A stretch of 14,063 bases of DNA from the IMG/VR virus record IMGVR_UViG_2693429635_000015. One strand, 5' to 3'. This DNA is from a virus. Its lineage: Duplodnaviria > Heunggongvirae > Uroviricota > Caudoviricetes. Under the pieces are notes generated by a model. It was not told the origin of the DNA. It worked only from the letters and a program-made list of their open reading frames with translations, and did no database searches. Shown piece by piece: positions 4,769 to 14,063 of this stretch (positions are counted from its first letter, which is position 1; each line of letters starts with the position of its first letter). A program made the position numbers and the translations under genes.

Positions 4769-5259
4769 GATTCGATGATTTTCAGAAACGGGTTAGTGGC
4801 TTTCTTCTGCCCCGCCAGGCCAATCAGACGCTGGCGGCTGCTGGGGTCGAGTCCGAGCATTGCCCCCGTGCTGCTCATCTCGGACTCCTGTTCTTTCTTG
4901 GCGGTCAGCTCCGGATTTTTGACCATGCCACCCATTGCACCGGTGATGGTGTTGCCCTGTCTGGCAATATTTTTCACGGCACGTCGCCAGAACTCATAGG
5001 CCACGCACCACCGCTCAAGTACCGCCAGGTCAGTCACGCACAGCAGGCCCTGACCGCAGAGTTCTTTGGTTGTCAGTTGCCACATGATCGTGGCGAGAGG
5101 GAGATCTTCTTCAGCGAACCACTCCGGTGGCTCAACACCTTTGATGGGCGTAAAAACAGGTTCATCTTTATTCAGGGCTCGCTTGCCGGGGTTTCCGGCC
5201 AGCGCCTTGCGCGCCGTTGGCTTGGGGCGACGCCCGGAACGCCCCGCCGTTCCAGCCAT
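4765..5259 (-). CDS. Terminase small subunit (P27-like family)
   Basis: N-terminus [30 protein letters not shown] is characteristic of P27-family small terminase subunits. The first ATG is at 5259 with AGGAG 8 nt upstream; the ORF track's 5268 start is an in-frame GTG that I consider less likely. Confidence 0.8.
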
Positions 5260-5268
5260 ATGCGGCAC

Positions 5269-5384
5269 TCCTGGTTAAATTTCATTTTTCGCGGGTATAA
5301 AAAAACGATGGGGCGGGCAGTCCGGAAGACGTCAGGCCGCAGGGATTTGACCCGCCCCTCCCCTCAGGCAGTTGAGAATTATTA
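5269..5384. other. Candidate cos / terminase recognition region (copy A)
   Basis: Intergenic region between HNH and TerS, where HK97-like phages carry cos. It contains a GC-rich imperfect inverted repeat GGGGCGGGCAG ... TGACCCGCCCC flanking a central GACGTC palindrome. The exact cut site cannot be determined from sequence alone. Confidence 0.35.
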
Positions 5385-5735
5385 TCACTTCAACCGTTCA
5401 CGGGCCGTCTTCGCCTTATGACACGGCCAGCACAGACTCTGCAGATTACAGTCGGCATCAGTGCCGCCATGCGCTTTAGGGATGATGTGGTCAACGGTTT
5501 TCGCCTCGCGCACCACACCAGCACGCAGGCACAACTGGCACAGGCCTTTGTCACGCTTGAGCACACGTTCACGGATAACATCCCATTTCGAACCATAACC
5601 GCGCTGGTGTCGGGACTGGCCTGGCTTGTATTGCTTCCAGCCTTCGCTTTTGTGGCTTTCGCAATAGCCTGACGAGTCAGTGGTGGTATGGCGGCAGCCG
5701 CGAACGCGGCAGGCTTTTGGGGTTCGTGGGGGCAT
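5385..5735 (-). CDS. HNH homing-type endonuclease (phage cos-cleavage accessory HNH), copy A
   Basis: Cys-rich N-terminus (CRVRGCRH...CESH) and an HNH motif (DHIIPKAHGG...N...CWPCH). ATG at 5735 with AGAGGA RBS; the start is supported by the near-identical copy B, which begins MPPRTPKACR. Sits immediately upstream of TerS as in HK97-like phages. Confidence 0.8.
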   Translation of the reverse strand: MPPRTPKACRVRGCRHTTTDSSGYCESHKSEGWKQYKPGQSRHQRGYGSKWDVIRERVLKRDKGLCQLCLRAGVVREAKTVDHIIPKAHGGTDADCNLQSLCWPCHKAKTARERLK

Positions 5736-5885
5736 TGCATAATCCTCTTGGATGGTTCGCGTACGATACGTGGCACCCTTCTCAGAATCGAATCGCACTC
5801 CATTCCGGTTTTGCCATAAACGATCTTTTATGCTTCGCTGGATGTAGTTGATAGTTGTTGAAACTCAATGAACAGGAGTTCACAA

Positions 5886-6221
5886 ATGAATAGTTATGAA
5901 TGGGCATGGCTTTTGAACAAAGATGACACCCTATACTTTTTCCCCGTAGGCCATTCTGTAGAAGGTAATTACAAAATTCACTTTGAGTTGAGCGGTAGTT
6001 GTAACCTTAGAGTCTCAGATGCTGAATTGCATGGTAAACCTGTACTGCTGTTCGAATACTTCGATGAAGATGATGACCGCCCTGCAATAATCGAAATATT
6101 AGAAACAACCACTACAACTGTGGAGGCGATGATCGCACATCTGAATAGTATCGATAGTATTTACCATGAACCGATTTACAAAGCTGTTTACGAGTGGGCT
6201 GTAAAGTTTTTCTATCGATGA
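5886..6221 (+). CDS. Hypothetical protein (111 aa from the second ATG), AT-rich accessory gene
   Basis: ORF track 5868..6221. The second ATG at 5886 has AGGAG at 5874-5878 with 7-nt spacing. Composition is clearly AT-rich relative to the phage structural genes. I recognise no family; an acidic stretch (EYFDEDDD) and a TTTT run are present. Confidence 0.55.
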   Translation: MNSYEWAWLLNKDDTLYFFPVGHSVEGNYKIHFELSGSCNLRVSDAELHGKPVLLFEYFDEDDDRPAIIEILETTTTTVEAMIAHLNSIDSIYHEPIYKAVYEWAVKFFYR

Positions 6222-6321
6222 TACTTCGTTATCTTTCTGGCATTCACAATACCTTTACATATTAATGACATGCCAGCACAATACTGTCACTTACAACCGT
6301 TCGGATTACCTAGAGAAAAGT

Positions 6322-6438
6322 ATGATTCAGGATTTACTGATCGAAGCAATTAGTCACGATAGGATGCATAAAAAGTTAAATGAACTGAATGGCTACTTCT
6401 ACAATCGCAAACATGAAACACAAATACGTGATGAGTGA
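6322..6438 (+). pseudogene. Short ORF (38 codons) running into the IS3 left end; probable truncated gene
   Basis: ATG at 6322; the frame stays open to the TGA formed by the first three bases of the IS3 terminal repeat (6436-6438). Weak RBS. Could also be a chance ORF. Confidence 0.3.
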
Positions 6439-6500
6439 TCTTACCCAGCAATAGTGGACACGCGGCTAAGTGAGTAAACTCTCAGTCAGAGGTGACTCAC

Positions 6501-6800
6501 ATGACAAAAACAGTATCAACCAGTAAAAAACCCCGTAAACAGCATTCGCCTGAATTTCGCAGTGAAGCCCTGAAGCTTGCTGAACGCATCGGTGTTACTG
6601 CCGCAGCCCGTGAACTCAGCCTGTATGAATCACAGCTCTACAACTGGCGCAGTAAACAGCAAAATCAGCAGACGTCTTCTGAACGTGAACTGGAGATGTC
6701 TACCGAGATTGCACGTCTCAAACGCCAGCTGGCAGAACGGGATGAAGAGCTGGCTATCCTCCAAAAGGCCGCGACATACTTCGCGAAGCGCCTGAAATGA
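6501..6800 (+). CDS. insE: IS3 transposase OrfA (InsE-like, HTH DNA-binding)
   Basis: 99-aa product [50 protein letters not shown]... matches my memory of IS3 InsE. GAGGTGA RBS upstream of the ATG at 6501. A probable -1 slippery site (CCAAAAG around 6761-6767) lies near the 3' end. Confidence 0.85.
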
Positions 6801-7663
6801 AGTATGTCTTTATTGAAAAACATCAGGCTGAGTTCAGCATCAAAGCAATGTGCCGCGTGCTCCGGGTGGCCCGCAGCGGCTGGTATACGTGGTGTCAGCG
6901 GCGGACAAGGATAAGCACGCGTCAGCAGTTCCGCCAACACTGCGACAGCGTTGTCCTCGCGGCTTTTACCCGGTCAAAACAGCGTTACGGTGCCCCACGC
7001 CTGACGGATGAACTGCGTGCTCAGGGTTACCCCTTTAACGTAAAAACCGTGGCGGCAAGCCTGCGCCGTCAGGGACTGAGGGCAAAGGCCTCCCGGAAGT
7101 TCAGCCCGGTCAGCTACCGCGCACACGGCCTGCCTGTGTCAGAAAATCTGTTGGAGCAGGATTTTTACGCCAGTGGCCCGAACCAGAAGTGGGCAGGAGA
7201 CATCACGTACTTACGTACAGATGAAGGCTGGCTGTATCTGGCAGTGGTCATTGACCTGTGGTCACGTGCCGTTATTGGCTGGTCAATGTCGCCACGCATG
7301 ACGGCGCAACTGGCCTGCGATGCCCTGCAGATGGCGCTGTGGCGGCGTAAGAGGCCCCGGAACGTTATCGTTCACACGGACCGTGGAGGCCAGTACTGTT
7401 CAGCAGATTATCAGGCGCAACTGAAGCGGCATAATCTGCGTGGAAGTATGAGCGCAAAAGGTTGCTGCTACGATAATGCCTGCGTGGAAAGCTTCTTTCA
7501 TTCGCTGAAAGTGGAATGTATCCATGGAGAACACTTTATCAGCCGGGAAATAATGCGGGCAACGGTGTTTAATTATATCGAATGTGATTACAATCGGTGG
7601 CGGCGGCACAGTTGGTGTGGCGGCCTCAGTCCGGAACAATTTGAAAACCAGAACCTCGCTTAG
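6797..7663 (+). CDS. insF: IS3 transposase OrfB (InsF-like, DDE integrase core)
   Basis: 288-aa product matching remembered IS3 InsF (…[34 protein letters not shown]…[10 protein letters not shown]…). In the -1 frame relative to OrfA, overlapping it by ATGA. Confidence 0.9.
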
Positions 7664-7693: not shown

Positions 7694-7862
7694 AAGCGAG
7701 AGGGAGATCTTCTTCAGCGAACCACTCCGGTGGCTCAACACCTTTGATGGGCGTAAAAACAGGTTCATCTTTATTCAGGGCTCGCTTGCCGGGGTTTCCG
7801 GCCAGCGCCTTGCGCGCCGTTGGCTTGGGGCGACGCCCGGAACGCCCCGCCGTTCCAGCCAT
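7694..7862 (-). pseudogene. Terminase small subunit 5' fragment (first ~56 codons) truncated by IS3
   Basis: Identical to the N-terminal coding part of the 4765..5259 TerS ([18 protein letters not shown]...EEDLPLA). The reading frame then runs into the IS3 right end (ORF track 7677..7871). Confidence 0.75.
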
Positions 7863-7871
7863 ATGCGGCAC

Positions 7872-7987
7872 TCCTGGTTAAATTTCATTTTTCGCGGGTA
7901 TAAAAAAACGATGGGGCGGGCAGTCCGGAAGACGTCAGGCTGCAGGGATTTGACCCGCCCCTCCCCTCAGACAGTTGAGAATTATTA
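7872..7987. other. Candidate cos / terminase recognition region (copy B)
   Basis: Same GGGGCGGGCAG...GACGTC...CCCGCCCC architecture as 5269..5384, differing by three substitutions that I could see. Confidence 0.3.
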
Positions 7988-8338
7988 TCACTTTAACCGT
8001 TCACGGGCCGTCTTCGCCTTATGACACGGCCAGCACAGACTCTGCAGATTACTGTCAGCATCAGTGCCGCCATGCGCTTTAGGGATGATGTGGTCAACAG
8101 TTTTCGCCTCACGCACCACACCAGCACGCAGACATAACTGACACAGACCTTTGTCACGCTTCAGAACACACGCGCGGATACTGTCCCACTTCGAACCGTA
8201 GCCGCGCTGATGACGGGATTGTCCAGGTTTGTATTGCTTCCAGCCTTCGCTTTTGTGGCTTTCGCAATAGCCTGACGGGTCAGTGGTGGTATGGCGGCAG
8301 CCGCGAACACGGCAGGCTTTTGGGGTTCGTGGGGGCAT
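7988..8338 (-). CDS. HNH endonuclease, copy B
   Basis: 116-aa ORF with the same HNH motifs as copy A. ATG at 8338 with AAGGAG RBS 8 nt upstream. Confidence 0.8.
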   Translation of the reverse strand: MPPRTPKACRVRGCRHTTTDPSGYCESHKSEGWKQYKPGQSRHQRGYGSKWDSIRACVLKRDKGLCQLCLRAGVVREAKTVDHIIPKAHGGTDADSNLQSLCWPCHKAKTARERLK

Positions 8339-8388
8339 TTAAATTTCTCCTTCAATCATTACTACTGGTCTACCCATCGTAATGGCAA

Positions 8389-8419
8389 CAAAAAACCGCC
8401 CGTGGAAAGTGGGCGGTTT
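8389..8419 (-). terminator. Rho-independent terminator (minus strand)
   Basis: Perfect 8-bp GC-rich stem (AACCGCCC / GGGCGGTT) with a ~9-nt loop, followed on the minus strand by a run of 7 T. Lies 15 nt downstream of the 8434..8754 gene. Confidence 0.6.
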
Positions 8420-8433
8420 AGGAGAGAATCGAT

Positions 8434-8754
8434 TTAAATCAAATTGCCGATAAATTTCGCCTGTACAGACAGAGTCGCACCAGGAACACCAGCAATTCCA
8501 CCTTCAAGGTAATAACCATCCCCAATATCTCTCACAGAGAGATCCATCACATAATCGTTAAGGCCTGCAATAACGTTTTGTGCTGAAGGGTTATGGCGGG
8601 ATACATGAAGTTTCAATACCCCATCTTGTACACGCCCCTGATAGGTAAACCCAAAATCACCACCATTAACCGCATTATCCTTCACAACGACCGTGCCATT
8701 GCCAACATCATTATGACCGCTTCTGAACACAACAAAATAAATGCCGTCTTTCAT
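8434..8754 (-). CDS. Hypothetical protein (106 aa), moron-like gene between spanins and HNH
   Basis: ATG at 8754 with AAGGA RBS 8 nt upstream. Preceded by a ~90-bp AT-rich spacer and followed by the terminator at 8389..8419. Gly-rich with no obvious signal peptide; family not recognised. Confidence 0.55.
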   Translation of the reverse strand: MKDGIYFVVFRSGHNDVGNGTVVVKDNAVNGGDFGFTYQGRVQDGVLKLHVSRHNPSAQNVIAGLNDYVMDLSVRDIGDGYYLEGGIAGVPGATLSVQAKFIGNLI

Positions 8755-8846
8755 GTGTATAGTCCTTCAAAAAAATCACCCAAATCAGGTGCTTTGTATC
8801 TATTGGGTCATCACATATCAAATCAAGGAACAAAATAAAGTGAACA

Positions 8847-9116
8847 TCATTTTTTTTGCATGATGTGACCACGCTCAACTTCAATCCTTCTGATGTCAGC
8901 TTTATCGGTATTACACTGCGCCAATGCAGACAACAAGGCGGCATTCAGATCTAAGCTCGAGCCCCACGTAAAATGATCAGGTAAATCAGGCTGAGGGGTT
9001 TCAGCCGTCAGGCTGGCTGGCAGTGGTACCGTCGGAGTGTTCACGTAAACTGTCCGCATACTTCCGCAACCGCTCAGCAGCGGCAGCAGGCACAAGACGT
9101 GAAGCACAATCATCAT
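8847..9116 (-). CDS. Rz1-like o-spanin (outer-membrane lipoprotein), overlapping Rz in a different frame
   Basis: Within ORF 8847..9344 (different frame from Rz) an internal MM start precedes a lipobox-like LLSGC and a Pro-rich segment (TPTVPLPASLTAETPQPDLP). RBS is weak and the start uncertain. Extends past the Rz stop, so the pair is overlapped rather than embedded. Confidence 0.5.
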   Translation of the reverse strand: MMIVLHVLCLLPLLSGCGSMRTVYVNTPTVPLPASLTAETPQPDLPDHFTWGSSLDLNAALLSALAQCNTDKADIRRIEVERGHIMQKK

Positions 9117-9393
9117 CCGCAACGGCCATTTTGATATCTTCCTGGGTTCTTTGTGACTCCAGTGCGATCTGCTGTTTTGCATGCTGGTTAGCCTCCAGTA
9201 CTGTATTGACGATTTGCAGTGATTGCAGGACGTTATTGGTAATGGCTGTTGCTGATCCAGCATTTCGTTCAGCCTCATCAGCACGCTTCTTTTCGTACTG
9301 ATATTTGCTGTAGTAGTGGTTGGCTGACCAGATGAAAGAACCAATGACAGTAACGAAGAAAGCAGCGATAACCAGCTTATAGCTCAACTTCAT
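9001..9393 (-). CDS. Rz-like i-spanin (inner-membrane spanin subunit)
   Basis: 130 aa with an N-terminal TM helix (LVIAAFFVTVIGSFIW) followed by a charged, coiled-coil-like domain. Immediately downstream of the endolysin, overlapping its stop. Confidence 0.65.
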   Translation of the reverse strand: MKLSYKLVIAAFFVTVIGSFIWSANHYYSKYQYEKKRADEAERNAGSATAITNNVLQSLQIVNTVLEANQHAKQQIALESQRTQEDIKMAVADDDCASRLVPAAAAERLRKYADSLREHSDGTTASQPDG

Positions 9394-9853
9394 TTATCAC
9401 CCCACCAGCCTCTTCAAACCGTGCAATCAGGTCACCGATTTTATGTTCATACTGACCGTAACCTGCACCAGGTAATGACGCCCAGATATTGCTGCAACGG
9501 TCGATTGCCTGACGAATATTGCCACGGTCAATCATCGGTAAAGCGCCACGCTCTTTAATCTGCTGCAGAGCTACAGCGTCCTGGCTTTCTGGAGAAAAAT
9601 CTTTCAGGCCAAGCTGTTTACGGTAAGCATCCCACCAGCGTGAAAGAAGCTGGTAACGTCCGGCGGCTGTTGACTTGAGTTTCGGGTTTAGCGTGACAAG
9701 TTTGCGAGGGTGATCGGAGTAATCAGTGAAGAGTTCACCACCGACAATAACGTCATAACCGTGGTTACGTGTCGGTTGTCGTCCGTTATCCGTTCCTTCT
9801 GACCATGCCACCATATCAAGGAAAGCTTTACGCTGGGAATTTAGTACCTGCAT
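9377..9853 (-). CDS. R: Endolysin, lambda R-type lytic transglycosylase
   Basis: 158-aa product ...NSQRKAFLDMVAWSEGTDNGRQPTRNHGYDVIVGGELFTDYSDHPRKLVTLNPKLKS...RYQLLSRWWDAYRKQLGLKDF... is near-identical over long stretches to phage lambda R as I remember it, including the catalytic-region EGT motif. AAGGAG RBS upstream of the ATG at 9853. Confidence 0.9.
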   Translation of the reverse strand: MQVLNSQRKAFLDMVAWSEGTDNGRQPTRNHGYDVIVGGELFTDYSDHPRKLVTLNPKLKSTAAGRYQLLSRWWDAYRKQLGLKDFSPESQDAVALQQIKERGALPMIDRGNIRQAIDRCSNIWASLPGAGYGQYEHKIGDLIARFEEAGGVINEVEL

Positions 9854-9856
9854 AAA

Positions 9857-10183
9857 TTACTCCTTAGAGCCACCAAATTTGTTACCGATTACTCGCATTG
9901 CAGCCCCACGAATAGCATCGACACCGATCAGCCCCACCCCACCACCAATGGCAACAGAAAGTGATTTAGGCCATCCGACATACTCAAGAGCGGATGCAAA
10001 GGTCAGCGTCAGAGCGCCACATAGCAAAATCTCGAGCGTTTTTCGCTTCCAGCCACCACCACCGCCAAAATAGGCGATGCGCAAACCAGCCATAACGATC
10101 GACATAATCACTGCACCCAGCGGTGTGTCTCCACGCCACCAGCTCTGGACCAAGTCCAGCCAGGTATTTGGGTTATGAGGCAT
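9857..10183 (-). CDS. Holin (class I-like, three predicted TM segments)
   Basis: Immediately upstream of the endolysin with a 3-nt gap. Three hydrophobic segments and a charged C-terminus. I chose ATG at 10183 (GAGGT-containing RBS region); the ORF track's longer form starts at a GTG at 10279 that overlaps the methylase 3' end. Confidence 0.6.
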   Translation of the reverse strand: MPHNPNTWLDLVQSWWRGDTPLGAVIMSIVMAGLRIAYFGGGGGWKRKTLEILLCGALTLTFASALEYVGWPKSLSVAIGGGVGLIGVDAIRGAAMRVIGNKFGGSKE

Positions 10184-10225
10184 TTCGTCATCTCTCACCT
10201 CGCGATATTTGCGGGTGCTGTGTTG

Positions 10226-10254
10226 GAAATAAAAAGGCCACGCAACGTGGCCAC
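10226..10254 (-). terminator. Putative rho-independent terminator (minus strand) between methylase and holin
   Basis: Stem GGCCACG / CGTGGCC with a 3-nt loop, followed on the minus strand by TTTTTATTT. The short loop makes this moderate confidence. Confidence 0.45.
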
Positions 10255-10259
10255 CAGAA

Positions 10260-11312
10260 TTATTTCCCCACCAGTTCACTTACCTCTTTCACCGTCTGAT
10301 TAAACCGCTCTGACTCAAGTTCAACACCTAACGCCCGACGCCCCAGCGCCATTGCTGCTTTTATTGTGGAACCGGATCCCATAAAAAAATCAGCAACCAG
10401 ATCACCAGGTCGACTACTGGCATTGATTATTTGCCTGAGCATATCCGCCGGTTTCTCACACGGATGTTTACCCGGGTAGAACTGAACGGGTTTATGCATC
10501 CAGACATCGGTATAAGGCACGGAGACTGATACGGAGAAATAGCGCCGGAGAGATTTAAACTCATCCAGCAATTCAGAATATTTGCGATTCAGTGAATCAT
10601 AAGACGCCACCAGCTGGTGGTGTGGTTGTTCCAGTTGTTGTTCCTGAAACTTCTCTGCCGCTATACGGGAAAACAGTGCCTGTAACTTCCGATAGTCAGC
10701 CTCATTCGGCAACTGCCACTGACTGGCACCAAACCAGTGGGAAACCATATTTTTCTTACCTGTGGCTTCGGCAATTTGTTTTGCCGTTATACCCAGTTCG
10801 GCACGAGCATCCCTGAAATACGATATCAGCGGTGCCATTATGTGCTGTTTGAGTTCCCTTTCTTTTGCCGCATAGCCGTCACTTTTGCCGCGATATGGCC
10901 CCTGGTAATGTTCAGCAAACAGAACGCGCTCTGTGGCAGGAAAATATGCGCGCAGACTTTCTTTATTACACCCATTCCAACGTCCGGACGGCTTCGCCCA
11001 GATGATATGGTTAAGCACGTTGAAACGTTCACGCATCATGATCTCAATATCAGATGCCAGGCGATGCCCACAGAACAGGTAAAGGCTTCCGGCAGGTTTC
11101 AACACCCGCCAGAACTGGGCCAGACAGTGGTCCAGCCACTTAAGGTAATCTTCGTCCCCTTTCCACTGATTGTCCCAACCGTTGGGTTTCACCTTGAAAT
11201 AAGGCGGATCGGTAACAATCAGGTCAATGGAATCATCAGGCAGGGACTGAATAAAATGCAGGCAATCAGCGTTGATTAAATCAACACTGTTTATTTTTAC
11301 AGTATTTTTCAT
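10260..11312 (-). CDS. DNA methyltransferase (amino-MTase, beta-class motif order; probably N6-adenine)
   Basis: 350 aa with catalytic motif IV DPPY near the N-terminus (IVTDPPYF) and AdoMet-binding motif I FxGxG near the C-terminus (FFMGSGST). No adjacent restriction endonuclease gene, so it looks like an orphan phage methylase. Confidence 0.85.
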   Translation of the reverse strand: MKNTVKINSVDLINADCLHFIQSLPDDSIDLIVTDPPYFKVKPNGWDNQWKGDEDYLKWLDHCLAQFWRVLKPAGSLYLFCGHRLASDIEIMMRERFNVLNHIIWAKPSGRWNGCNKESLRAYFPATERVLFAEHYQGPYRGKSDGYAAKERELKQHIMAPLISYFRDARAELGITAKQIAEATGKKNMVSHWFGASQWQLPNEADYRKLQALFSRIAAEKFQEQQLEQPHHQLVASYDSLNRKYSELLDEFKSLRRYFSVSVSVPYTDVWMHKPVQFYPGKHPCEKPADMLRQIINASSRPGDLVADFFMGSGSTIKAAMALGRRALGVELESERFNQTVKEVSELVGK

Positions 11313-11461
11313 GGATCAGTAAGCGTAACTCTGGTAGGCTCACTCTGCTTTTGCGCTAAAGCAGTGGGCCGTGGTTCGCTTGTGACCAGTAAGCATGAGC
11401 GAATGGCTGGCAGGTGCTACCAACACCCACCAGCCGCCCATTTTCACAAATTAAAAGTCCT

Positions 11462-11656
11462 TCATTGCTGAAGGCGTCTGTAACAGCCGAACTGGTAATC
11501 TGCCAGCCCCGCCATAACCAACTGGGTCAGTATTAACTGACAGCGTTCGCGTGAAAGATATGTGTTTTGTGCAATCTCCCCGACTGTTGCCGGTTCGATG
11601 CTTAATTCATTAAAAACAACTTTCGCCGTTTCTGTCATATCTTGCTGTTTTAGCAT
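11462..11656 (-). CDS. Small hypothetical protein (64 aa), possibly HTH DNA-binding
   Basis: Within ORF 11462..11680; the internal ATG at 11656 has AAGGA 8 nt upstream. The segment TVGEIAQNTYLSRERCQLILTQL resembles a helix-turn-helix. First gene after the 11779-11804 terminator on the minus strand. Confidence 0.4.
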   Translation of the reverse strand: MLKQQDMTETAKVVFNELSIEPATVGEIAQNTYLSRERCQLILTQLVMAGLADYQFGCYRRLQQ

Positions 11657-11778
11657 GTCTTTTTTCCTTCTGGTTAACATGACATACCAATAACTCTTGT
11701 CTAAAAAGCCAGCAAGATAAAAAGTCAGTATTCACGACCACCAGCGTGTTTACCGTACTGCACCAGGTTTACAGGTAC

Positions 11779-11804
11779 AAAAAAACCCGCTCGACGGCGG
11801 GTTT
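11779..11804 (-). terminator. Rho-independent terminator (strong on minus strand, weak on plus); candidate tR'-like late terminator
   Basis: 7-bp stem AACCCGC / GCGGGTT with a 6-nt loop, followed on the minus strand by 7 T (plus-strand A run 11779-11785). On the plus strand only TTT follows. Confidence 0.6.
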
Positions 11805-11961
11805 AAGTTGTGTGGCGAAGTAACCACTCTTAACACGATATAATACTTTTTGCGTACGCGTTAACTTTTTCTGTAGTATTTAGTGTAAGATTCTTCACAA
11901 GATAGATACTTTGGAGTACATGATGTAAAGTGCTGTATGCATAAACAGTACAAAGGATATC

Positions 11962-12483
11962 ATGATGAACAAATTAGCACGCTTATTATTAACAGCAAGC
12001 TCAATTGCACCTGTTTGCGCAACTCTATTTTTTATTGGATATGTAAAAGATACGGTTTGGCTGATGCAATATAGCTTATGCGTTGGCATAGCAAGTTGGT
12101 TATTAGCAATAGGCCTGATTCAATATGCTGAGAAACAACTTGAACCTCTGACAAAAAATATTAGTTCAGTTTCTCCCGCTAACAAAGAAGTAACTAATTA
12201 TTTCTTAAGCTATTTATTCCCTCTCCTAGGAACAGACTCTATTGCTGAAAATAAAGCATATGCGTTATTCTTTTATTTGTCATTGTTATTTTACATCAGC
12301 TTTTCCGAGAACTATAACTTTAACCCAGTATTGTCACTTATCGGTTATAAATTTTACGAAGCTGAAGATGACACCGGCGTAGGTTTTGTATTGATTTCTA
12401 AATCAGTCATTACTGATATTAAAGATATCAAATTTACAGTTATTCAATTAACAGACTACACATTTCTACATGTTAAAGGATAA
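11962..12483 (+). CDS. Integral membrane protein (173 aa, ~4 predicted TM helices plus a ~60-aa C-terminal soluble tail); first gene of candidate accessory/defense cassette
   Basis: AAGGA RBS before a tandem ATG at 11962. Hydrophobic segments at roughly residues 8-28, 35-55, 80-92 and 100-115. Strongly AT-rich codon usage, unlike the flanking phage genes. Opposite strand to all surrounding phage genes. Confidence 0.65.
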   Translation: MMNKLARLLLTASSIAPVCATLFFIGYVKDTVWLMQYSLCVGIASWLLAIGLIQYAEKQLEPLTKNISSVSPANKEVTNYFLSYLFPLLGTDSIAENKAYALFFYLSLLFYISFSENYNFNPVLSLIGYKFYEAEDDTGVGFVLISKSVITDIKDIKFTVIQLTDYTFLHVKG

Positions 12484-12488
12484 TAACC

Positions 12489-13373
12489 ATGGCACTTTTT
12501 GCAGTAATAGATAATACAATTGCAACGAGAATTGTTAGAGTCGAACTTGATGCAACAGCAAGTACTTCTGTTACGGCCATTTTCCAACAACAGCGTCAAT
12601 ATTTTGAAAGTCATCATAACAATATGATACCATTCTATGCCGGTTATACACCAAAACATAGTGAGTGTTTTGAAATACAAAACTTTACTGATTCTGCACG
12701 CCTGATTGACGCAGTCAATAGGCCTACCGCCGTGCCTGTCTGGGATCCCAGCCAAATTGATATTGGTTATATTAAAGCATTATTTGTTGGTGTTGACGCG
12801 CCAGCAAACCCCAATATTATTGCGCTACAAACCTTCAACAAAAAACAAATCTTAGATACCTCAAAATCATTCTTTGGAAAGCTTTTTGCAAGCAAAACTA
12901 CCTTTAGTAAAGCTAATAGCATCGGTTTTAATGTTGATGATAAACTAGTTGCAATAATTATCAATGATACAATACGATTTAAGAGTTTCTTTAATCTAAG
13001 AAGCATTTTTGACATGTTGTCCTATTTTTCTGCTGCTACTGACCAAGAACTTAATGCATTTAGTCAACTTAGTGTATTTTCTACTCCCCAAGGTTTTGAT
13101 CTAAAATCCGTTGCAGATACAGTGATAAGAAATAAAGTAACACTAATAAATCAGACTGGGATGCTAACACCCCAAAATATGTCAAAGTTTAAATCCGAAG
13201 CTGCTAAAGTCAATTTCCCCTTACAAACCATAATAGTTGGCGGTGTTGAGAAAATTGTCATGCCTTCATCAAAAAAAGAAATAAAAGCCCTTCTTGACTT
13301 TCTTGAGGAAGACATTTGGATTTCTGGGATAAGTGGAAGACGCTTTAAATCGAATTCAAAGCGCCCAATATAA
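12489..13373 (+). CDS. Hypothetical cytoplasmic protein (294 aa); second gene of candidate accessory/defense cassette
   Basis: ATG at 12489 lies 5 nt after the upstream stop, with AAAGGA 8 nt upstream, so the two genes are translationally coupled. AT-rich, no TM segments, no motif I can assign with confidence (an R-x5-H pattern near residue 36 is noted but weak). Its stop is 21 nt from the convergent Q stop. Confidence 0.65.
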   Translation: MALFAVIDNTIATRIVRVELDATASTSVTAIFQQQRQYFESHHNNMIPFYAGYTPKHSECFEIQNFTDSARLIDAVNRPTAVPVWDPSQIDIGYIKALFVGVDAPANPNIIALQTFNKKQILDTSKSFFGKLFASKTTFSKANSIGFNVDDKLVAIIINDTIRFKSFFNLRSIFDMLSYFSAATDQELNAFSQLSVFSTPQGFDLKSVADTVIRNKVTLINQTGMLTPQNMSKFKSEAAKVNFPLQTIIVGGVEKIVMPSSKKEIKALLDFLEEDIWISGISGRRFKSNSKRPI

Positions 13374-13394
13374 CTAGAAGACAGTTAAGAATAG

Positions 13395-13742
13395 TTAACA
13401 GGCAAGAGTGCAAACAATGCCTTCAATGAAACCAAGCGATGTTTGCAACTCTTTCCTGATAGTCCCATCCGAACACTTTCTCTTCTTAGCAATGGCTCGC
13501 AATGAAATCCCTACTACAAAATGGGCTATAACTAACTCATACTCTTCTGGTTTGTACTTTCTTAATCTAGCTACGCACCCATCGATCATGAGCCCCTCAT
13601 CATCATCACACTGAATCCGGGACTTTTTGCCATGAGGTAAAAGCCCCTTGAAGCCAGCGGCTACCGGTTGCCAGTCCACTCCGCTATTGTCTGAAGCAGC
13701 CCAAGCTCCCCAACGATCCATCACTTCATACATATCACGCAT
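13395..13742 (-). CDS. Late-gene antiterminator Q (small Q class, phage 82 / DLP12 QuuD-like)
   Basis: 115 aa from the first ATG at 13742 (GGAG RBS 7 nt upstream); the ORF track's 13757 start is TTG. Contains RWGAWAA and Cys-rich motifs (CDDDE...DGC, ...CSDG) that I associate with small Q antiterminators. Position (after a DUF1364 gene, upstream of the lysis genes) fits. Confidence 0.65.
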   Translation of the reverse strand: MRDMYEVMDRWGAWAASDNSGVDWQPVAAGFKGLLPHGKKSRIQCDDDEGLMIDGCVARLRKYKPEEYELVIAHFVVGISLRAIAKKRKCSDGTIRKELQTSLGFIEGIVCTLAC

Positions 13743-13759
13743 CAACTTTCTCCACAAAA

Positions 13760-14050
13760 TCAGGCCAGCACGCCAATTGCCAGCGCACGATCGATAAAAC
13801 GAAATATCAGCTCCAGCTGGGAGCCATACTTCTCTTCAAATGCCACGGTATCCGCATGCAGCTCGTCGTGATGCTTTCTGCACAAAGGCAACACAAAGAG
13901 GTCATGCGCTTTTGTACCCATCCCACCCTGACCGTGGCCTATCAAGTGGTGGGGATCATCAGCAGGCTTTCCACAACATGCACACGGCTGTGTCTTAACC
14001 CAGCGCGTGTACTTTTCATTAACCCAGCGGCGACGTTTTGGGCGTAACAT
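13760..14050 (-). CDS. DUF1364 / YbcO-like zinc-binding putative nuclease (Nin-region protein)
   Basis: 96 aa with CxCC...HH...C..HH cysteine/histidine clusters. GGAG RBS 6 nt upstream of the ATG at 14050. Size and position immediately upstream of Q resemble ybcO of DLP12-type prophages; assignment from memory. Confidence 0.55.
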   Translation of the reverse strand: MLRPKRRRWVNEKYTRWVKTQPCACCGKPADDPHHLIGHGQGGMGTKAHDLFVLPLCRKHHDELHADTVAFEEKYGSQLELIFRFIDRALAIGVLA

Positions 14051-14063
14051 AAAAGACTCCGGC

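Follow-up and report, generated by a model that had tools for sequence, protein, structure and literature searches.

An orphan methyltransferase of the M.EcoGII family between the Q and lysis genes of a prophage, and its putative structured leader RNA

Background

M.EcoGII is a non-specific N6-adenine methyltransferase encoded by a prophage of Escherichia coli O104:H4 (PMC5778455). It is silent in the lysogen, as is M.EcoGI (PMC5778455), and expression of these enzymes slows growth (PMC5778455, PMC12707154). A role in the protection of phage DNA from restriction was proposed by the M.EcoGII authors (PMC5778455; PMC12707154). Homologues of the family in O111 Shiga toxin-producing E. coli gave no methylome signal (PMC6602927). 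The M.EcoGII papers leave open how so toxic an enzyme stays off in lysogens and on in lytic growth. Here we analyze a gene of this family in a 14,063-nucleotide (nt) stretch of tailed-phage DNA, IMG/VR record IMGVR_UViG_2693429635_000015, which is referred to in its full length as the window. The methyltransferase itself is ordinary, being one more copy of a family that is found in about a quarter of complete E. coli genomes and is sold as EcoGII. What appears to be undescribed, and is the new point of this analysis, is the 149-nt leader that precedes it.

The closest characterized relatives are M.EcoGI and M.EcoGII of E. coli O104:H4 strain C227-11 (Murray et al. 2018, PMC5778455), which share with the window copy the beta-class motif order, nearly the same length (349 vs 350 amino acids, aa) and the status of prophage-borne orphans. 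The window copy differs from M.EcoGII at 19% of residues, and its neighbours are a Q21-type Q gene and a Kiwa system upstream and SfV-type lysis genes downstream. The closest described loci are those of SfV (orf48), Ayreon, mEp460, cdtI and mEp460_4F5, with ~95-98% DNA identity from the upstream terminator through the downstream terminator. SfV differs in having a Q of another family (250 aa) and no Kiwa, and its match to the window sets in precisely at the upstream terminator.

Several other phage enzymes are similar in some respects. The products of hin1523, nma1821 and hia5 from Mu-like prophages (Drozdz et al. 2012, PMC3299994) are also phage enzymes of relaxed or absent specificity and occupy the anti-restriction slot of mom, but they are alpha-class enzymes with the reversed motif order (PMC5778455), an unrelated recognition domain and a different type of phage as carrier. 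The mom gene of Mu is likewise a toxic, adenine-modifying late gene that is silent in lysogens (PMC12707154), although Mom makes N6-carbamoylmethyl-adenine and is not a methyltransferase. T4 Dam, P1 Dmt and the Dam homologues M.EcoGV and M.EcoVT2 of Shiga toxin (Stx) phages are also phage or prophage orphan N6-adenine methyltransferases of enterobacteria. However, these Dam-type enzymes are GATC-specific, have the alpha-class order, belong to another Pfam family and are encoded elsewhere in Stx phage genomes.

Results

An intact member of the M.EcoGII family

The preliminary description of this DNA, made from its letters and open reading frames (ORFs), had placed a beta-class amino-methyltransferase gene at 10260-11312. 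The ORF was recovered with exactly these ends, and to this can be added that it lies on the minus strand. The claimed motif order also stands: DPPY (motif IV; aa 35-38, window 11210-11199) is N-terminal to FMGSG (motif I, F-M-G-S-G; aa 310-314, window 10385-10371), as in other enzymes of the beta class. That this order is not due to chance is argued by the match to Pfam PF01555 N6_N4_Mtase over aa 29-341 (E=2.3e-42; 145.9 bits, cut-off 26.7). The product is further matched by a PHROG 'DNA methyltransferase' profile (E=4.5e-102) and by PADLOC MTase_II (E=6e-152). No match to the Dam-family (alpha-class) models of Pfam and NCBIfam was found. By sequence (phmmer), the closest solved relatives are M.BceJIV, M.RsrI, M.MboIIA and CcrM; the relatives by sequence or fold, which also include M1.HpyAVI, M.PvuII and the Mod subunit of EcoP15I, are all beta-class N6A/N4C enzymes. 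[quoted passage not shown] Degeneration of the catalytic motifs had been named as one finding that would speak against the assignment. Both motifs are intact, and together with the helix-turn-helix segment TGKKNM-SHWF they are invariant in 30 Enterobacterales homologues.

The product is 81% identical to M.EcoGII (282/349) over the full length, including the target-recognition domain, with two 1-residue gaps. For M.EcoGII and the reconstructed ancestors of the family, the sequences come from Supplementary Table S1 of the SUPREM paper (PMC11551740), a PDF that was read by machine with a few errors. With Anc291 the product has 88.8% identity, and with Anc284/SUPREM 69.7%. Both ancestors were reported to be active on DNA and RNA, and nanopore sequencing, on RNA only, showed no site preference (PMC11551740); the absence of a motif on DNA rests on M.EcoGII itself (PMC11551740). 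These identities place the window copy inside a clade that is bracketed by tested enzymes without detectable site preference. The published family architecture is a split Rossmann core (~1-134 and ~260-349) around a four-helix helix-turn-helix recognition domain (~160-237) (PMC11551740). In the AF2 model of the window copy, helices 147-173, 177-184, 190-194, 204-223 and 231-255 lie between the core strands, in agreement with this layout but with pLDDT below 50 at 100-140 and 258-285. Judged by its sequence, the ORF product is thus an intact member of an already known, characterized family of prophage enzymes. By homology to the tested enzymes, it probably methylates adenine in essentially any context.

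An orphan gene in a mobile cassette

Comparisons were made with 80 near-identical viral loci and 80 genome loci (160 related loci) and with 5426 complete E. coli genomes. The gene is present in 1256 of the 5426, at up to 8 copies per genome, and 3064 protein clusters across Enterobacterales match the product at E<=1e-10. The protein itself is 99% identical to a cluster of 4060 sequences. Window 8881-11803 is ~95% identical to Shigella phage SfV, where the ORF corresponds to orf48 (~97% DNA identity). The same gene is found in phages Ayreon, mEp460 and cdtI and in Stx2a phages, and in these, as in SfV, it adjoins Q. On one Stx prophage contig, the order is a lambda-type Q, a 65-aa small ORF, the methyltransferase, stxA and stxB; the relative encoded there is 92.8% identical to M.EcoGII. 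This bears out the earlier statement that orphan methyltransferases occupy such a position in lambdoid and Stx-type prophages.

No restriction endonuclease gene adjoins the methyltransferase among all ORFs of 7988-14063, each of which was assigned by family searches. Nuclease-like genes nearby are limited to HNH endonucleases by the terminase genes and the DUF968 gene upstream of Q. The same context holds in the 80 viral and 80 genome loci, and the gene is therefore an orphan, as the preliminary description had it. At one related locus (L128), a large upstream ORF was guessed from sequence, without a family search, to be an NPPY-type methyltransferase.

Relative to E. coli TUM14664, where Q, Kiwa and the holin are present, the window has an extra 1574 bp (10208-11781) that consists exactly of the orf47-like gene, the leader, the methyltransferase and the downstream terminator. 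The cassette does not vary among the 80 near-identical viral loci, whereas the Q and lysis alleles that flank it do. With edges that fall at terminators, this indicates that the terminators mark the edges of a mobile module. Examined as a possible moron, the cassette has its own downstream terminator and edges that coincide with terminators; a simple consensus scan showed no sigma-70-like promoter. The coordinates of the module and of its neighbours are collected in Table 1.

Table 1. Features of the window around the methyltransferase gene
Feature	Coordinates	Strand	Remarks
Methyltransferase ORF	10260..11312	minus	ATG start, TAA stop, 350 aa
Non-coding leader, 149 nt	11313..11461	minus	Ends exactly at methyltransferase ATG
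Leader helices (11461 = position 1)	P1a 21-26:62-67; P1b 27-38:46-57; P2 75-84:138-148; P3 92-95:121-125; P4 98-104:111-117		Predicted
Alternative leader helix	59-67:79-87		Predicted; excludes P1a and P2b (81-84:138-141)
orf47-like 64-aa winged-helix protein	11462..11656	minus	Mechanical ORF to 11680; homologues begin MLKQQDM
tR'-like upstream intrinsic terminator	11776..11804	minus	AAACCCGC-CGTCGA-GCGGGTTT then TTTTGTA
Candidate pR'/Q-binding/pause segment, 59 nt	11805..11863	minus	Co-travels with Q21-type Q allele
Downstream intrinsic terminator	10226..10252	minus	GGCCACG-TTG-CGTGGCC then TTTTTATTTC
Antiterminator Q, Q21 family	13395..13742	minus	PF06530 E=1.5e-45; 99.7%-identical copy annotated in RefSeq
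Lambda-family holin, first lysis gene downstream	9857..10183	minus	ATG at 10183
Endolysin	9377-9853		After holin
Rz	9001-9393		After endolysin
KwaA	11962-12483	plus	173 aa, PADLOC E=2e-83
KwaB	12489-13373	plus	294 aa, PADLOC E=1e-149
IS3-family element	orfA 6492-6800; orfB 6797-7663

A conserved leader between the orf47-like gene and the methyltransferase

The leader has a mean nucleotide identity of 82% to the window over 36 diverged genome loci, compared with 74% in the methyltransferase gene and 71% in orf47. A covariance model derived from a MAFFT alignment of the leader gave a match that ends directly at the methyltransferase ATG at 57 of the 80 genome loci, in genera from Escherichia to Providencia, Morganella, Yersinia and Lonsdalea. 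Further matches are the leaders of the window, SfV, Ayreon and the Stx prophage. Photorhabdus and Xenorhabdus have a shortened leader that retains the first hairpin. The association with the methyltransferase is close: when viral contigs were scanned with a degenerate pattern, the gene was found 80-200 nt downstream in 113 of 117 evaluable leader copies. The other four (L182, L226, L253 and L274) keep hairpin P1 alone, with a recombination breakpoint just 3' of P1 and unrelated AT-rich DNA in place of the methyltransferase.

The leader is predicted to fold more stably than expected (RNAfold z=-3.2), and the helices listed in Table 1 are borne out by comparison. In a structure-blind MAFFT alignment, 86.7% of cells pair, against 27-45% with slid partners, and changes on both sides of the helix occur at 9 pairs, against 3-6 in the slid controls. 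In a model-fitted alignment of 61 sequences, such changes occur at 19 pairs, against 6-9 in controls, and none of 500 shuffles reached the observed value. P1b shows compensatory change at all 12 of its pairs. There are many conserved G-U pairs, and the structured strand is therefore the sense strand of the mRNA. Taken as a conserved and selected RNA structure, the leader is on very firm, if not conclusive, ground.

One strand of P2 (138-148) directly adjoins the start codon on its 5' side, and the methyltransferase has no Shine-Dalgarno (SD) sequence. The alternative helix covaries as well. Pair 61:85 occurs as C-G, A-U, U-A and U-G, pair 64:82 as U-A and C-G, and in both alignments two-sided changes are seen at 4-5 pairs, whereas slid controls have no more than 1; position 82 changes in step with each of the two partners between which it alternates. 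For the window, the predicted energies of the two folds are almost equal, and across 59 distinct leader copies the energy difference between them has a mean of -0.6 kcal/mol and a standard deviation of 4.9.

Searches for an existing description gave nothing. Rfam 15 had no gathering-level match in the window and none at E<=10 over 11313-11461, and the weak matches at 11770-11875 reflect the terminator hairpin only. A literal search of 8 million papers for two leader sequence strings had no result. Among the small RNAs known from prophages, AgvB and AsxR have other positions and their Rfam families gave no match, and Pas and StxS were ruled out by their described positions only. A leader peptide was also considered, as an ATG at leader position 21 opens a frame (MGGWWVL...) with two Trp codons. 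However, single-base indels among the homologues shift the frame or stop it after 7 codons, so that there is no conserved reading frame, and Providencia copies keep the helix without the Trp codons. A split SD sequence at the 5' foot of P2 was set aside: GAGG, AAGG or AGG is present in just 32 of 61 copies and in the window not at all.

The orf47-like protein

The small gene upstream of the leader encodes a product of PHROG 331 (unknown function), with weak Pfam matches to DprA_WH and TrmB; NCBI RefSeq names it 'TrmB family transcriptional regulator'. The AF2 model (pLDDT 91.5) has an H-H-H-beta-hairpin fold, a minimal winged helix. Its structural neighbours are generic and include MarR/IclR DNA-binding domains, O-methyltransferase dimerisation domains and the RNA-binding domain of SelB. 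A tblastn search placed the gene directly before the leader at ~55 of the 80 genome loci. In ~18 loci other genes replace it, and there the leader is equally conserved. The protein was therefore rejected as an obligatory partner of the leader, its fold matches also being generic. It could nevertheless be a regulator or reader linked to the methyltransferase.

Terminators and the late region

Along the minus strand, a DUF968 gene that is interrupted by the end of the window is followed by Q, Kiwa (on the opposite strand), the 59-nt segment, a terminator, the 64-aa ORF, the 149-nt spacer, the methyltransferase, a second terminator, holin, endolysin, Rz, a GrlR-like ORF, HNH, terminase, portal and protease. 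In described Q cassettes, the Q gene is followed by the constitutive promoter pR', a pause site, a terminator and the late genes (bioRxiv 10.1101/651190; PMC4104026), and Q-loaded polymerase ignores terminators (bioRxiv 10.1101/651190). The upstream terminator of the window (-13.8 kcal/mol, z=-3.1) is annotated as such in SfV and Ayreon and is the point at which homology to SfV and to two other loci (L003 and L006) switches. The adjoining 59-nt segment is found in 13 of the 17 loci with a Q at least 70% identical to that of the window and in only 6 of the 143 loci without such a Q. It co-segregates with the Q allele even across 1.5 kb of unrelated cargo, and it is absent from SfV, whose Q is of a different family. 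This co-segregation fits a Q-specific loading site, and the segment is probably, as a candidate identified by comparison, the Q loading site together with the late promoter. With the loading site there, Kiwa would lie between Q and pR', outside the late transcript. The gap between Q and the segment looks like a hotspot for cargo. A consensus search for pR' itself gave no convincing -35/-10 pair in 11961-11805, and a simple consensus search found no sigma-70-like promoter on the minus strand in 11782-11313. Transfer RNA genes, as are found in Stx phages between Q and the lysis genes, were not found there.

Given this gene order and the established biology of Q, transcription of the methyltransferase is most likely strictly Q-dependent. 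Strict Q dependence would explain the silence in lysogens reported for the family, and the terminators at 11804-11776 and 10252-10226, with no promoter-like site, are consistent with silence of this particular copy in a lysogen. Just past the orf47 stop, there is also a weak terminator-like hairpin with a U-tract (11459-11474, minus strand, 6 bp, ACUUUUAAUU). Three loci (L091, L093 and L284) have a longer U-run at the equivalent site, for example GGGGGCUUUUUUUU, an observation on the U-run only. If the hairpin in the window terminates, the methyltransferase stands behind two terminators.

A terminator between the methyltransferase and the holin had been suggested before, and it is a real feature of the sequence. 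It begins 8 nt past the methyltransferase stop and ends 43 nt before the holin ATG, has a folding energy of -12.5 kcal/mol (z=-2.4), is annotated as a terminator in SfV and Ayreon, and falls inside the 1574-bp cassette lacking in TUM14664. The further suggestion that it tunes methyltransferase expression relative to lysis was not upheld by anything tested and conflicts with the known function of Q: under strict Q dependence the terminator cannot tune late expression, because the Q-modified RNA polymerase ignores it. It more plausibly insulates the holin from Q-independent transcription, or just marks the edge of the cassette.

Other features of the prophage

The Kiwa system is complete (window 11962-13373) and is inserted in antisense, on the plus strand, with Q on one side and the candidate late-promoter segment on the other. 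At this site, it and the methyltransferase cassette each occur alone. Together they were found in none of the 5426 E. coli genomes and none of the 80 viral loci, and 50,697 phage records contained no match covering at least 80% of the query.

The region of the HNH and small-terminase genes is present twice (5197-5736 and 7800-8338), and a single segment of TUM14664 matches both copies at ~94-99% identity. In the upstream copy, terS is shortened to 64 aa (7871-7677) and adjoins an insertion sequence (IS) element of the IS3 family, and two unassigned ORFs (5868-6221 and 6265-6438) lie between the copies. The prophage may therefore be rearranged or defective. Between Rz and HNH, a 106-aa ORF (8434-8754, minus) has a sub-threshold Pfam match to GrlR, a family of negative regulators of type III secretion systems, and is named 'GrlR family regulatory protein' in RefSeq, an odd passenger at the junction of the lysis and packaging genes.

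Discussion

The family identity, the intact motifs, the gene order, the terminators, the orphan status and the wide distribution of this gene were computed here; the anti-restriction role is the one proposed in the M.EcoGII literature. In combination, they make it likely that the gene encodes an active enzyme of the M.EcoGII family, expressed as a Q-dependent late gene, that protects progeny DNA from restriction. In such a scheme, the helix-turn-helix recognition domain and the charged linker would bind nucleic acid without reading its sequence. The gene lies, with Q upstream, in the late transcription unit of an SfV-like lambdoid prophage. In the lysogen, polymerase starting from the constitutive late promoter would halt at the first terminator, and the toxic enzyme would not be made. 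After induction, Q-modified polymerase would pass all terminators and the enzyme would be made along with the lysis and head genes. The replicated phage DNA could then be heavily methylated to N6-methyladenine (m6A) before packaging, so that the progeny would enter the next host pre-protected from many Type I, II and III restriction systems that are blocked by adenine methylation.

Several points weigh against this scheme. The assignment of Q dependence is drawn from synteny, with a Kiwa cassette placed between Q and the candidate promoter segment, and the activity of this copy is predicted by homology. In principle, the 19% divergence from M.EcoGII could have brought back a degree of sequence preference; M.PflMI, the nearest relative with site specificity, is only ~27% identical and so bounds non-specificity only loosely. 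Protection from restriction by the M.EcoGII family is proposed, and not demonstrated in phage infection, in the M.EcoGII literature. Finally, a prophage with an IS3-family element and a duplicated HNH/terS region may be defective, and its methyltransferase gene perhaps never expressed.

Other explanations can be weighed against this scheme. The enzyme could be a sequence-specific orphan like Dam or CcrM, marking a motif for packaging, replication timing or lysogeny control rather than giving blanket protection. NCBI names the family 'site-specific DNA-methyltransferase', there is weak sub-threshold similarity to the YhdJ and CcrM models, and the helix-turn-helix of the central domain is a fold usually used for specific recognition. 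However, the database name is generic and not experimental, and the NCBIfam scores are far under their cut-offs (109 vs 292 and 67 vs 830). The 81% identity to M.EcoGII extends through the recognition domain, and every tested node down to ~70% identity lacks a discernible site preference, as measured on RNA only. We therefore regard sequence specificity as improbable. It is less probable still, to the point of being hard to credit, that RNA is the relevant substrate, with late methylation of phage or host mRNA, rRNA or tRNA altering translation or stability and DNA methylation as a side activity. Single-stranded RNA and DNA:RNA hybrids are methylated by M.EcoGII in vitro (PMC5778455; PMC7544214), and ancestors of the family have RNA activity up to 12-fold higher (PMC11551740). 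On the other hand, the initial rate of M.EcoGII is ~90-fold higher on DNA than on RNA (11.12 vs 0.12; Table S3, PMC11551740), the enzyme has the fold of a DNA methyltransferase, and no RNA target is known in vivo.

The state of the prophage raises another alternative, in which the gene is a silent passenger of a decaying prophage, intact in sequence but never expressed and without current function here. An IS3-family element interrupts one small-terminase copy, the HNH/terS region is duplicated, and the arrangement of Kiwa with the methyltransferase is without a full-length parallel in the genomes, phage records and viral loci, which suggests recent recombination. Nevertheless, the ORF, its catalytic motifs, the leader and both terminators are all intact, and the protein is 99% identical to a cluster of 4060 sequences. 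Moreover, a second intact HNH-terS-terL-portal set follows the IS element, such that the packaging module may still work. The gene is thus unlikely to be a mere passenger, and an active, Q-dependent anti-restriction enzyme remains the preferred reading.

How the leader would contribute to the expression of this enzyme is a separate matter. Its alternative folds could make it a cis-regulatory RNA switch, specific to genes of the M.EcoGII type, that controls methyltransferase expression by gating translation; we offer this as a tentative model, with the balance tipping slightly against it. In one fold, P2 would tie up the 11 nt that directly precede the start codon, which has no SD sequence, and the mutually exclusive helix 59-67:79-87 would dissolve P1a and P2b. 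Candidate triggers for the switch would be the 64-aa winged-helix protein, in the manner of Com and mom, a small ligand, processing by RNase III, or co-transcriptional folding that differs between Q-modified and ordinary polymerase. The parallel with mom of phage Mu is one of analogy only: there too, the modification gene is directly preceded by the gene of a small protein, and its start codon adjoins a folded stretch of mRNA. However, Com is a zinc-finger protein, whereas the protein here has a winged helix, and ~18 loci have kept the leader although they lack the small protein. Appealing as it is, the comparison with Com and mom is weak.

Assigning the gene to the M.EcoGII family changes what is to be expected of it. 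The specificity to be looked for in REBASE is 'non-specific adenine', with no motif, and the methylome of the lysogen is expected to be blank, with heavy m6A only after induction. For the question of how a toxic methyltransferase is silenced in the lysogen, the module offers concrete elements, namely two terminators, a winged-helix gene, a leader with two folds and a start codon without an SD sequence. In Stx prophages, the same module sits in the late transcript just upstream of stxAB, and any influence on the passage or stability of that RNA could therefore bear on toxin expression as well.

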